Positions 854 to 4,504 of a stretch of 4,504 nucleotides of DNA are shown here, in pieces. The translations under genes and the position numbers were made by a program. The notes beneath the pieces are model-generated. The model saw only the letters and a list, made by a program, of their open reading frames with translations. It did not search any database and was not told the DNA's origin. The DNA is taken from positions 1 through 4,504 of the IMG/VR virus record IMGVR_UViG_2778261570_000002; one strand, written 5' to 3'. Each line of letters begins with the position of its first letter. Position 1 is the stretch's first letter. This DNA is from a virus (Duplodnaviria; Heunggongvirae; Uroviricota; Caudoviricetes).

Positions 854-1144
854 CAAGGGCTGATACATGCAATTCAGCAATTGAAACGACGAAGCCCCGC
901 ACTGTTGGAGCAGTAACGGGGCTTCTAACCAAACCGTTAACTGGAGTAACGATTATGGCTGTAAGACAGCATACCCCACGACTTGCGCACACACAAACGG
1001 TCTTTGTGTGGCGTTTTCTGGCACTAAGTGCCGGAGAATCTCAAATCGTCCACGTAACCGCCTGGACGGAACGCGAAGCGCGTAACCGTTGCCCGTCCGG
1101 TTGTGTCGCTGTATTCGCCGCCCGTATTCGTCAGGGGGTGCGCC

Positions 1145-1405
1145 ATGTGCAATAAAAACACGCCGGACGCAGCCGCCGAAGCCATCAAAACGCTAATGCA
1201 CGCGCTGATTGATATTTCATGCACGGCAGCAACCGCAGAAAAACACATTACCAGAGAGCCGGAGTATACAGGGGCAATAATCCCCCATTCGCTGGCCTAC
1301 GCACAGCTTACCGCTGATATGGCACTGAATGAGGCTAAAGCCATCCTGATTGCTGATTGTGAAAATGGGGGGGGGTTATGCGTGATGATCGTTTTAATGC
1401 CCTGA
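1145..1405 (+). CDS. Hypothetical small protein (86 aa), first ORF of the rightward replication operon
   Basis: ATG at 1145 is preceded by AGGGGGTG (1132-1139), a good SD with 5-nt spacing. The ORF ends at TGA 1403-1405 and its 3' end runs through a G9 tract. No family recognised. Confidence 0.45.
   Translation: MCNKNTPDAAAEAIKTLMHALIDISCTAATAEKHITREPEYTGAIIPHSLAYAQLTADMALNEAKAILIADCENGGGLCVMIVLMP
1367..1375. repeat. Homopolymeric G9 tract at the junction of two overlapping small ORFs
   Basis: Nine consecutive G read directly at 1367-1375. The tract encodes GGG in the 1145 frame and serves as the SD region for the ATG at 1378. Confidence 0.9.
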
Positions 1406-1611
1406 AACAGGAATTTGATGGCGCACCGGATGATACAGGCGATGCGTTGCTGGCTGTTAATGACCTGATAAAGGCCGCATGTTTTTTAATTGGAACCGCT
1501 GAACATTCAGGAACCGGCAACGATATTCTTATTATTGCGTCGGATTATGCTGAATATGTGGCAGAGGCGCGTTACAGAAGAAAATTACCGGAGGATGTAA
1601 GCCATGCATAA
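1378..1611 (+). CDS. Hypothetical small protein (77 aa)
   Basis: ATG at 1378 lies 2 nt after the G9 tract, which can act as SD. It overlaps the preceding ORF by 28 nt in a different frame. Stop TAA at 1609-1611. No family recognised. Confidence 0.45.
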   Translation: MRDDRFNALKQEFDGAPDDTGDALLAVNDLIKAACFLIGTAEHSGTGNDILIIASDYAEYVAEARYRRKLPEDVSHA

Positions 1612-1756
1612 TCATGAAGCACACTTACCTGTAGTGCTGAATGTACCGTCAGATTATACGGGGCGCGTTTTGATATTCCTGGATAAAGGGAAAGTGAAAT
1701 CACAATGCCGCCTTAGAAATAATGAGGTTGTTGGTTCTCTGGCTTTTTTTTTCTGA
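1604..1756 (+). CDS. Possible small ORF (50 aa) not in the supplied track
   Basis: ATG at 1604 has a strong SD GGAGGA (1590-1595) with 8-nt spacing. The start overlaps the stop of the 1378..1611 ORF. The ORF ends at TGA 1754-1756 after a T9 run that encodes FFF. Confidence 0.25.
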   Translation: MHNHEAHLPVVLNVPSDYTGRVLIFLDKGKVKSQCRLRNNEVVGSLAFFF

Positions 1757-1809
1757 AGCCTGTATTCGTGCCGGAATAAAACCGGAATCACTGACAGGAA
1801 AATAAAACC

Positions 1810-2124
1810 ATGAAAAAGAAAAATTCTGGCTTTACTGCCAGCGGCCCCGCTCGGCCTGAAATCCGCCCCGACGATATTTTCAAAGATAAATACGGCGGAC
1901 GAATAACGATAAAAACCGTCGATGATTTTCGCGTGACTTATATCCGCGAAGGTTATGCGCATCCCTGCGTGTCGTCACATATGCGTTTTGAGAGTGAATT
2001 CACCCTGGTAAGCAAAGCACCACCAGCGAACTTAAGCGACATCGACAGAATCATGCGCGTTACAGGTATGGAACGCATTAAGGCAGTACGTGAAATTATT
2101 CGTGAGCGGGGAAAGGCAAAATGA
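1810..2124 (+). CDS. Hypothetical protein (104 aa), translationally coupled to the helicase gene
   Basis: ATG at 1810 has AGGA about 10 nt upstream. Its stop TGA (2122-2124) overlaps the ATG (2121-2123) of the next gene as ATGA. No family recognised. Confidence 0.5.
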   Translation: MKKKNSGFTASGPARPEIRPDDIFKDKYGGRITIKTVDDFRVTYIREGYAHPCVSSHMRFESEFTLVSKAPPANLSDIDRIMRVTGMERIKAVREIIRERGKAK

Positions 2125-3926
2125 AACTGGCACCGAACTTAAAAAAACAGCCACACGACAAAATGACCGAAGTCATTATTTTTGCGGGTAGTGATGCCTG
2201 GGCGCACGCGAAACAATGGCAGGAGCAGGACGGGCGACTTGCCGGCGACAATGTTCCGCCTGTATGGCTTGGAGACAGCCAGCTTGACGAACTGGCAGAC
2301 CTGAAAATTATCGACGATGGTCGCTATTGTGTCCGGCTGTACAAGGCAGGCCACATCAAGCCATCAAATATTAATGCCATCGGGCAAAAGCTGGCGGCGG
2401 CAGGTGTACGGGATGCGAATTATTACCCTGAGGGGATGCACAGCCAGAAGCGGGAGAACTGGCACGAATATCTGGAGCGTGAGCGCCAGAATCTTTCTGA
2501 TGGTCTGGTTATTCAGCTTCCTGTTAAGAAAAAAACAGAAGACAGCGCCGCACCACTGGCGCTTAACCAGATGGGAGCAAGCCAGCGCGGCGAAGTTCTC
2601 CTGGCACGTTATGGCGGTGAACTGGCAATTAATGCGGACTCTGACACCGTTCACCACTACAACGGCGTTGTATGGGAGCCGGTACAGGATAAAGAGTTAC
2701 AGCGGGCTATGGCGCAGATTTTTATTGATGCGGAGATCAGTTATTCGCAGAACGCCATCAAATCGGCGGTCGATACAATGAAGTTAAGTTTGCCCGTAAT
2801 GGGGAATACCGCCCGTAACCTGATTGGATTCAGTAACGGTGTTTTTGATACCCGGACAGGCGATTTTCGGGAGCATGACAAAAACGACTGGCTGTTAATT
2901 GCCAGTGAATTACCGTTCAGCCCGCCAGCAGAGGGGGAAACGCTGGCAACGCATGCGCCGAATTTCTGGAAATGGTTGCGCCGTTCGGTGGCTGAGAATG
3001 ACCGTAAAGCGGATCGCGTACTGGCGGCGTTATTCATGGTGCTGGCGAACCGATACGACTGGCAGTTATTTCTTGAGGTAACGGGGCCGGGTGGAAGCGG
3101 TAAAAGCGTAATGGCGGAGATTTGCACCATGCTGGCGGGTAAGGCCAACACGGTATCGGCAAGCATGAAGGCGCTGGAAGATGCCAGGGAACGCGCGTTA
3201 GTGGTTGGATTTTCGCTGATTATCATGCCGGATATGACCCGCTACGCTGGTGATGGCGCAGGAATTAAGGCCATTACAGGCGGTGACAAGGTGGCAATCG
3301 ACCCGAAGCATAAAGCCCCCTACTCAACACGCATTCAGGCGGTCGTGCTGGCGGTGAACAATAACGCCATGTCATTCAGTGACCGCAGCGGGGGGATCTC
3401 ACGTCGTCGGGTGATATTCAATTTTTCGGAGGTTGTACCGGAAAACGAACGCGACCCCATGCTGGCAGAAAAAATAGAAGGAGAGCTGGCGGTTGTGATT
3501 CGCCACCTGCTTACTCGTTTTTCTGACCAGGACGAAGCTAAACGCCTGCTGTATGAGCAGCAGAAATCAGAAGAAGCACTGGTGATAAAACGCGAGGGCG
3601 ATTCGCTGGTGGACTTCTGCGGCTATCTCATGTCGTCGGTAATGTGTGATGGTCTGTTAGTGGGTAATGCCGAAATTATTCCGTTCAGTCCGCGCAGGTA
3701 TCTTTATCACGCCTATCTGGCATATATGAGGGCACACGGATTCGGTAAACCTGTAACACTGACGCGCTTCGGTAAAGATATGCCGGGGGCAATGGCGGAA
3801 TATGGCAGGGAGTATATGAAACGGAAAACGAAGCACGGTTTGCGTTCAAATGTGACCCTTACAGAGGATTCAGAAGACTGGATGCCATCATGTGCATCGG
3901 TCACAAATGACGATGGAAAAAATTAA
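2121..3926 (+). CDS. Replication protein: SF3 (D5/P4-alpha-type) helicase with a probable C-terminal origin-binding region (601 aa)
   Basis: Longest ORF in the window. Walker A GPGGSGKS at aa 322-329 (nt 3084-3107). Walker B-like hydrophobic stretch ending in Asp, LIIMPD, at aa 366-371. SF3 motif C with Asn, VLAVNNN, at aa 409-415. A cluster of P4-type iterons lies immediately downstream. SD-like GGGGAAAGG upstream of the ATG. Confidence 0.88.
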   Translation: MKLAPNLKKQPHDKMTEVIIFAGSDAWAHAKQWQEQDGRLAGDNVPPVWLGDSQLDELADLKIIDDGRYCVRLYKAGHIKPSNINAIGQKLAAAGVRDANYYPEGMHSQKRENWHEYLERERQNLSDGLVIQLPVKKKTEDSAAPLALNQMGASQRGEVLLARYGGELAINADSDTVHHYNGVVWEPVQDKELQRAMAQIFIDAEISYSQNAIKSAVDTMKLSLPVMGNTARNLIGFSNGVFDTRTGDFREHDKNDWLLIASELPFSPPAEGETLATHAPNFWKWLRRSVAENDRKADRVLAALFMVLANRYDWQLFLEVTGPGGSGKSVMAEICTMLAGKANTVSASMKALEDARERALVVGFSLIIMPDMTRYAGDGAGIKAITGGDKVAIDPKHKAPYSTRIQAVVLAVNNNAMSFSDRSGGISRRRVIFNFSEVVPENERDPMLAEKIEGELAVVIRHLLTRFSDQDEAKRLLYEQQKSEEALVIKREGDSLVDFCGYLMSSVMCDGLLVGNAEIIPFSPRRYLYHAYLAYMRAHGFGKPVTLTRFGKDMPGAMAEYGREYMKRKTKHGLRSNVTLTEDSEDWMPSCASVTNDDGKN

Positions 3927-3937
3927 ACTTATGGAAT

Positions 3938-4168
3938 AACTGTTCACCACTGTTCACCCTATCATAAATGTCTTTTATATCAGTACATTATAGGGTGAAC
4001 AGTTATTTATGAACTGTTCACCAAACTATTCACTGTTCACCTTTTTGATTGTTTATTGAGCTTAAGGGTGAACAGTGGTGAACAGTTGGTGAATAGTTTT
4101 TGTGAAACTGTTCACCCCTTAACATCATGAATAAAAAGGGAAAATCTCAAAAGGTGAACAGGTGAAGG
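3938..4168. repeat. Iteron cluster, putative origin of replication (P4 ori/crr-like)
   Basis: Nine perfect copies of TGTTCACC: on the + strand at 3941, 3951, 4015, 4034 and 4109, and as GGTGAACA at 3994, 4067, 4077 and 4153. At least three one-mismatch copies at 4027, 4088 and 4161. AT-rich spacers at 3959-3992, 4120-4150 and 4169-4200. It is directly 3' of the helicase gene. Confidence 0.7.
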
Positions 4169-4212
4169 GTTAAAATGCAAAAATTTTATTTTATTGCTGT
4201 GAGGTAAAGCCC

Positions 4213-4458
4213 GTGACAACGAAGCACGCAAAAAAACCACAATCTCACGCCCTTGATTTGACAGAACACTGGCTGAGAGTGGCGATAAAAATCATCGATC
4301 GCAACGCGGGAGAAGGATACGCGAAAGCACATCCTGAACTGATAAGCGCATTCATGACAACGGCGGCGGCAAACTTTGCCACGCTGACAGAACGAGAGAT
4401 TGCCGAAGCGGAACAGGTGACAACCATCAACGTTAAACCCGGAGAGCAGACAGCATGA
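4213..4458 (+). CDS. Hypothetical protein (81 aa), first gene of the operon downstream of the origin
   Basis: GTG start at 4213 with SD GAGG (4201-4204) and 8-nt spacing. Its stop TGA (4456-4458) overlaps the ATG (4455) of the following gene. No family recognised. Confidence 0.5.
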   Translation: MTTKHAKKPQSHALDLTEHWLRVAIKIIDRNAGEGYAKAHPELISAFMTTAAANFATLTEREIAEAEQVTTINVKPGEQTA

Positions 4459-4504
4459 CAGCACAGATAGCGGCTTACGGGCGGCTGGTGGCTGACCCGC
4501 AGTT
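4455..4504 (+). CDS. 5' end of a gene running off the window (16 codons visible); SSB-like N-terminal motif, tentative
   Basis: ATG at 4455 with SD GGAGAG (4441-4446) and 8-nt spacing; ATGA overlap with the upstream stop. The visible peptide MTAQIAAYGRLVADPQ resembles the hhhhG(N/R)LxxDP(E/Q) start of OB-fold single-stranded DNA-binding proteins. Only 48 nt are available. Confidence 0.35.
   Translation, partial: MTAQIAAYGRLVADPQ

Follow-up and report, generated by a model that had tools for sequence, protein, structure and literature searches.

Homopolymeric runs of the length considered here slip during replication, and in the contingency loci of Campylobacter jejuni, Neisseria and Helicobacter, which carry poly-G/C tracts, adjacent annotated ORFs form one gene in one phase. 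In Escherichia coli, repeat-based switching is uncommon. For contingency loci of the kind found in C. jejuni, Neisseria and Helicobacter, see PMC5084427 and PMC1891110. The DNA analyzed here, referred to throughout as the window, is the complete 4,504-bp contig NLMT01000141.1 of assembly GCA_002228995.1, and it carries a run of nine G at the junction of two small overlapping reading frames, ORF1 and ORF2. This tract shares with the contingency loci an uninterrupted coding G run of at least seven nucleotides, a length that differs in near-identical strains, and a gain or loss of one nucleotide that toggles between a one-ORF and a two-ORF annotation. Unlike those loci, it lies on a natural gene boundary where no frame would abolish either polypeptide, and the predicted outcome is fusion or fission instead of on/off; moreover, tracts of G7 to G8 are among the shorter and slower ones of this class. 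A likeness also exists to the translationally coupled overlapping genes of phages and satellites, which are joined by ATGA or 8-nt overlaps and have G-rich ribosome-binding sites inside the upstream gene: an overlap of this design is formed by the G8 allele (ATGCGTGA), by the next junction of the window (ATGCATAA) and by distant relatives (ATGAATAA and ATGCCTAA). In contrast to such coupled genes, however, the putative ribosome-binding site has here become a long homopolymer, so that the junction is mutationally unstable and has been fused repeatedly. Likewise, programmed -1 frameshift sites, such as that of dnaX (A AAA AAG) and those of IS element transposases, resemble the tract in its perfect slippery heptamer (G GGG GGG) and the open downstream frame, whereas no stimulatory structure was detected here and the shift that would be required differs between alleles. 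Finally, the island gene order of relatives and the replication module with a probable iteron origin in the window are similar to those of the E. coli PICIs and cf-PICIs, including EcCICFT073 and EcCIEDL933 (bioRxiv 10.1101/2022.09.08.507074; PMC10085698), although the window, in contrast to complete PICIs, ends before any int, alpA or packaging genes. The tract is not mentioned in these PICI and cf-PICI papers, and our literature search found no paper describing it. The features of the window to which the following text refers are these:

955 to 1155, + strand: Icd-like gene, identified by an NF033153 match (2.3e-17) and the PGAP annotation of homologues; 11-nt overlap with ORF1.
1145 to 1405, + strand (the ORF list also gives a start at 1103): ORF1, 86 aa in the G9 state, matching phrog_5146 and the N-terminal half of phrog_2512.
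1367 to 1375, + strand: G9 homopolymer, made up of the C-terminal Gly codons of ORF1 and a G-rich, Shine-Dalgarno-like element of ORF2; a hypermutable site, G6 to G11 in relatives.
1378 to 1611, + strand: ORF2, 77 aa, matching phrog_24341 and the C-terminal half of phrog_2512; its Met is the start of stand-alone homologues.
1604 to 1756, + strand: ORF3, 50 aa here, with an 8-nt overlap with ORF2 (ATGCATAA); truncated by a T9 run at 1744-1752.
1810 to 2124, + strand: DUF4222 gene (RgdR-type), Pfam PF13973 (7.6e-18), in the same overlapping operon.
2121 to 3926, + strand: D5/P4-type primase-helicase, Pfam D5_N, DUF5906 and Pox_D5; its TIGR01613 score of 97.9 bits is below the curated cut-off of 108.7 bits.
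3938 to 4162, no strand assigned: iteron cluster and probable origin, with 10-nt iterons, ACTGTTCACC five times on the + strand and GGTGAACAGT in four to five copies on the - strand.

The nine G occupy positions 1367-1375 in the context GAAAAT-GGGGGGGGG-TTATG, with GATTGTGAAAAT on the 5' side of the run and TTATGCGTGATGAT on its 3' side, and form an uninterrupted mononucleotide tract of slip length within and next to coding sequence. Such a run is not expected by composition, as dinucleotide shuffles of the window (n=200) gave an expectation of 0.02 and contained a G9 run in 4 of 200 cases, compared with one run in the real window. As the preliminary description had stated, and as both the sequence and the ORF list bear out, ORF1 (ATG at 1145, stop at 1405) and ORF2 (ATG at 1378, stop at 1611) overlap across this tract. 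The overlap measures 28 nt, and ORF2 is in the -1 frame relative to ORF1. The ATG of ORF2 starts 2 nt 3' of the G run, with TT alone between them, and the run is the sole candidate Shine-Dalgarno element for ORF2, which agrees with the earlier proposal that it also forms the ribosome-binding region of the downstream gene. A putative G-rich ribosome-binding site, CAGGGGG, precedes the start of ORF1 as well. The conserved part of ORF1 stops at ...ADCENGG(G), while its final nine residues, LCVMIVLMP, come from reading the 5' end of ORF2 out of frame. When the tract length was edited in silico in the window and the ORFs were read again, G7 gave a 154-aa ORF1-ORF2 fusion and G10 a 155-aa fusion with the junction ...CENGGGVMRDDRF..., in agreement with the suggestion that one additional G, or two fewer, joins the frames into a protein of about 155 aa. 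In the G8 and G11 edits the predicted C-terminus of ORF1 was ...GGGYA*, with an 8-nt ATGCGTGA overlap with ORF2, and in the G6 and G9 states, the latter being that of the window, it was ...LCVMIVLMP* with the 28-nt overlap; the preliminary description, which expected a change in length to alter the end of ORF1, is therefore accurate. Judged from these readings, ORF1 and ORF2 would both be open in all three frames, and the ATG of ORF2 together with its putative G-rich ribosome-binding site would always be kept. At this level, tract length is predicted to fuse or separate the two halves and to add a 9-aa tail, with no on/off effect on expression, and the tract is probably not an on/off switch.

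The length of the tract proved to be highly variable among related elements. The six E. coli loci that were aligned first had one 154-aa CDS at G7, two CDS at G8 and at G9, and one 155-aa CDS at G10, so that homologues with the fused frame anticipated in the preliminary description exist at G7 and G10. A pattern scan of IMG/VR for the junction then yielded 89 contigs, in which uninterrupted tracts of G7 (23 contigs), G8 (34), G9 (17), G10 (4) and G11 (2) were found, along with nine interrupted ones (GGGGGTGG in three, GGGGTGGG in two, GGGGGGGGTGG in one and GGGGAGGGGGGG in three). In terms of reading frame, 27 of the 89 were fused, 42 were split with the 8-nt overlap and 20 were split with the 28-nt overlap, and all six tracts in this set that are interrupted by T were in the two-gene frame with the 8-nt overlap. 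Exact-junction searches over 5,426 complete E. coli genomes, about 737 of which are carriers, returned G6 (7), G7 (371), G8 (164), G9 (94), G10 (about 9) and G11 (3), where G7 is the commonest allele with a count inflated by the oversampled O157:H7 clone; individual strains include E. coli 042 with G10 and O157:H7 with G7. No tract shorter than G6 occurred among the approximately 830 copies from IMG/VR and the complete E. coli genomes. Among complete genomes, the closest relative over 1112-4504 is 98% identical and has G10, and the exact junction was present in one of 185,579 species representatives, a Shigella flexneri with G8; spread beyond Escherichia/Shigella was not found in this set.

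Comparison of the tract with its flanks demonstrated that close relatives with the same flanks differ in tract length, as contingency loci do. When contigs were clustered by their flanks (at most two differences in 850 nt), the tract was heterogeneous in six of the seven multi-member clusters, and one cluster with zero flank differences contained four G7 copies and one G8 copy. Moreover, an identical ORF2 protein is encoded in contigs with G8 (three) or G9 (three), the latter including the other assemblies L112 and L114. The tract mutates faster than its flanks and the polymorphism is real among relatives, although some assembly-to-assembly differences in tract length could be sequencing artefacts. 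In these relatives the proteins are not always separate, nor is the tract fixed at a shorter length, and the description of the site as one of slipped-strand type is in keeping with the range of G6 to G11 and with the variation among copies with identical flanks, so that slippage is presumably the mutational mechanism. On the other hand, G7 was uniform in eight sampled genomes of the O157:H7/O145 type, as judged from equal match lengths.

Our analysis of more distant relatives did not sustain the proposal that the tract splits what had been a single gene. A profile of the fused proteins was compared with 1.84 billion 50%-identity representatives, and this search found few fused relatives, while most of the distant matches were proteins of 70-90 aa covering only positions 1-77 or only positions 79-155 of the profile. 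In the ORF2-type matches their own residue 1 falls on profile position 79, the Met after the tract, and the distant stand-alone homologues of ORF1 are 73-84 aa long. In four loci (L096-L099) the ORF2-like gene has no ORF1-like partner and follows an Icd-like or an unrelated small gene, with a ribosome-binding site of caggaggtacgtccATG or AGGAGG type and no G run, and two others (L103 and L105) have ORF1-like and ORF2-like sequences as separate genes with 8-nt overlaps. The overlaps of such distant relatives, ATGAATAA and ATGCCTAA, follow the same design as the ORF2/ORF3 junction of the window (ATGCATAA). Since distant relatives are separate genes, since stand-alone homologues start at the Met that follows the tract and since the T-interrupted tracts lie in the two-gene frame, we conclude from these comparisons that the two-gene arrangement is ancestral, with fusion as a recurrent by-product of slippage. 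A second, unrelated example supports this origin of the fusion: L103 (~2700-2735), with CCCCGGGGG, is split, while L104 (~2060-2100), with CCCCGGGG, has lost one G from the CCCCGGGGG motif and is fused. The N-terminus of the L104 protein is also altered, and this copy may be of low quality or decaying. Regardless of the frame, ORF2 is 73-79 aa long in 85 of the 89 IMG/VR loci, and dN/dS was 0.25-0.44 for both halves in every combination of tract states, a comparison by tip state that has low power given that the tract flips faster than substitutions accumulate; both halves thus appear to be under purifying selection whatever the tract state. In line with the mixed annotation of the module, PHROGs distributes it over three families, one fused (phrog_2512), one with ORF1 only (phrog_5146) and one with ORF2 only (phrog_24341), and its function entry for the ORF1 and ORF2 families is unknown function. 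Searches of Pfam, NCBIfam and PDB sequences returned no match for ORF1, ORF2 or the fusion. An origin of ORF1 and ORF2 as tandem paralogues was rejected (hhalign probability 0.1%), and an AlphaFold2 model of a fused homologue, all-helical with a pLDDT of 54 and of low confidence from the Gly junction on (residues 75-99), was too poor to use.

Taken as a whole, the junction is probably best described as a pair of translationally coupled genes in which a G-rich ribosome-binding site and Gly codons have formed a slippage-prone run, with both the fused and the split forms tolerated. ORF1 and ORF2 would descend from two small genes that were separate at first, and would belong to the early/replication operon of an E. 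coli PICI-type satellite, an operon whose genes would be chained through short start/stop overlaps. The terminal Gly codons of ORF1 may have merged with the G-rich ribosome-binding site of ORF2 to give an unbroken G run 2 nt before the ATG, and a run of 7-10 G would slip in replication, so that copies of the element would drift among three frames. G8 and G11 would give the first of these, in which the two genes are separate and overlap by the canonical 8 nt (ATGCGTGA); G6 and G9 would give the second, in which they are again separate but overlap by 28 nt, and ORF1 has a junk tail of nine residues; and G7 and G10 would give the third, a single protein of 154 or 155 aa with a Gly linker. Since each frame would keep both polypeptides as well as the ATG and the putative ribosome-binding site of ORF2, changes would be tolerated and would be seen as standing polymorphism without an on/off switch, and the tract variation would be near-neutral. 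With only TT before the ATG, the run would have to contain about seven G or more for a GGGGG element to be suitably spaced, and this need may be the reason why no tract shorter than G6 was found. Several observations stand against this explanation. As G7 is the commonest allele, the fused protein could be the preferred form in some lineages; the floor at G6 hints at selection for a long run, either for the ribosome-binding site or for mutability, as opposed to pure neutrality; and in the G9 state ribosomes translating ORF1 would run 27 nt past the ATG of ORF2, which may make its initiation less efficient.

The remaining explanations account for parts of the same data. The tract could be an adaptive contingency locus, that is, a selected and reversible switch of architecture between fused and split or, via translational coupling, of the dose of ORF2 and the genes downstream (ORF3, the RgdR-like gene and the primase), which would diversify satellite behavior within a clone. 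That no flanking site changes as fast as the length of the tract, that the approximately 830 copies include no allele below G6, that the next gene has a second polymorphic homopolymer (T7/T8/T9) which varies independently, and that the genes are a chain of overlapping reading frames are all consistent with such a switch. However, all three frames are common and none is avoided, both halves are translatable in each frame, 9 of the 89 copies have interrupted tracts, and the uniform G7 in the eight sampled O157:H7/O145-type genomes indicates that this allele, the commonest, is not highly unstable, so that we consider adaptive switching unlikely. Hence, of the phase-variable switch suggested in the preliminary description the hypermutable length stands, while a simple on/off switch is improbable given halves that are open in each frame and the frequency of all frames. 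Still more doubtful is a wider version of this explanation, in which the G run and the independent T run together would serve E. coli PICI satellites as a mutability device kept by selection, one that alters the fusion state and the coupling along the series icd-ORF1-ORF2-ORF3-rgdR-like-primase. It is also improbable that the G9 allele is recoded, either by ribosomes that slip by -1 on the G GGG GGG heptamer or by slippage of RNA polymerase on the run, to yield fused and separate products from one genotype. Although the heptamer is a perfect X XXY YYZ in the frame of ORF1, a -1 slip would give exactly the ...NGGGVMRDD... protein that G10 encodes, and both polymerases and ribosomes are known to slip on long homopolymers, the 131 nt from 1320 to 1450 fold at -34.5 kcal/mol compared with -33.3 kcal/mol for shuffles (z = -0.38), which is no significant structure, and Rfam gave no match at or near the tract. 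In addition, the frame relationship is not conserved as it is at true programmed sites, since homologues would need a -1 shift, a +1 shift or none and are spread over all three frames (27 fused, 42 with the 8-nt and 20 with the 28-nt overlap).

A miscalled G8 or G10 in the window, which is after all a 4.5-kb contig of a draft assembly, with the T9 run then possibly a miscalled T8, would explain why two 9-nt homopolymers that disturb reading frames occur within 400 nt, and an error of +1 in both would restore the canonical G8/T8 combination seen in three IMG/VR contigs. Nevertheless, G9 is common (94 complete genomes and 17 IMG/VR contigs) and occurs with an identical ORF2 in other assemblies (L112 and L114), T9 recurs together with G8 in L110 and thus the two tracts vary independently, and the ORFs that contain the shorter A7 runs of the window are intact, which makes a base-calling error very unlikely. 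The least credible explanation, in our judgment, is decay of a single gene, according to which the 155-aa gene would be the functional unit and the G8 and G9 alleles frameshift pseudogenes heading for loss. Fused forms are indeed frequent and are annotated by PGAP as one CDS; however, approximately 70% of the IMG/VR copies are split, yet neither of their halves is truncated or has acquired secondary stops, dN/dS is far lower than 1, and the distant relatives are separate genes. The coupled-gene explanation accordingly remains the one that we favor.

The replication module that holds the small ORFs is defined by the primase-helicase gene, just downstream of which the iteron cluster is located as the probable replication origin of the satellite. 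Weak Rfam 'miRNA' matches at 3967-4146 are artefacts of the inverted repeats of the iterons, and the + strand ORF from 4 to 1155 in the mechanical list is not a gene. On the - strand, positions 450-758 contain a divergent ORF of 102 aa that matches phrog_6522 and whose homologues are annotated as members of the YlcI/YnfO family. With regard to the PICI type, the content of the window is restricted to the primase-helicase gene and the iterons, as the contig ends before int, alpA and packaging genes. In complete E. coli genomes, the islands of relatives comprise int, an AlpA-type HTH gene, the icd-like gene, small ORFs, DUF4222, helicase/primase, SSB and PerC, and the O157:H7 island, which adjoins pepT/roxA, has capsid genes too; its order matches the PICI or capsid-forming PICI type described for EcCIEDL933. 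In this capsid-gene island the G7, fused module lies directly upstream of the RgdR-type gene (L100, 6499-6798). RgdR is described as a DUF4222 protein of OI-51 in O157:H7 (PMC10877973) and is a regulator of type III secretion.

Variation at this locus is not restricted to the G tract. In silico, a T8 run in ORF3 would restore a 66-aa protein, the C-terminus of which matches that of an intact homologue in L097, and the run in relatives is T7, T8 or T9, independent of the G run; PGAP marks the T7 homologues of ORF3 as 'frameshifted'. At least three unrelated types of ORF3 were found when L002, L004 and L001 were compared, one of which (L002 and L008) has a G7 run of its own. The region between the icd-like and DUF4222 genes is a cassette zone, as L102 has a 98% identical backbone in which unrelated small ORFs (1441-1894) replace ORF1/ORF2 (window 1145-1800). 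The junction itself (~1340-1420) is a recombination crossover, with the ORF2 parts of L110-L114 differing by 2 nt from the window and their ORF1 parts by 15-56 of 230 nt. Over about the first 12 codons of ORF2 there is almost no synonymous diversity, which is forced in part by the search pattern and explained in part by the recombination crossover, but the two do not fully account for it.

In summary, the tract is a genuine, if rather ordinary, slippage hotspot of the familiar contingency-locus type, for which the host, E. coli, and the carrier, a PICI satellite, are unusual, and its variation looks tolerated rather than used. Because tract length varies between copies, hundreds of E. coli genomes differ in whether the same two-gene module is listed as a single protein, as two or as 'frameshifted', PHROGs has it in three families, and neither the fused nor the split form should be called a pseudogene. 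The locus also provides a natural case in which a putative ribosome-binding site and a run of Gly codons repeatedly fuse and split neighboring genes. This repeated fusing and splitting suggests that the two proteins act together, as do the viability of the fused form and the adjacency of ORF1 and ORF2, which distant relatives keep. If the tract were to tune the early operon, to which the primase gene and that of the RgdR-type regulator belong, it would represent a rare repeat-based switch in E. coli, and if the G and T runs were a selected mutability device, they would generate heritable but reversible subpopulations with different satellite replication, helper interference or RgdR-type virulence regulation, and would amount to phase variation by repeats in a phage satellite and in E. 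coli.
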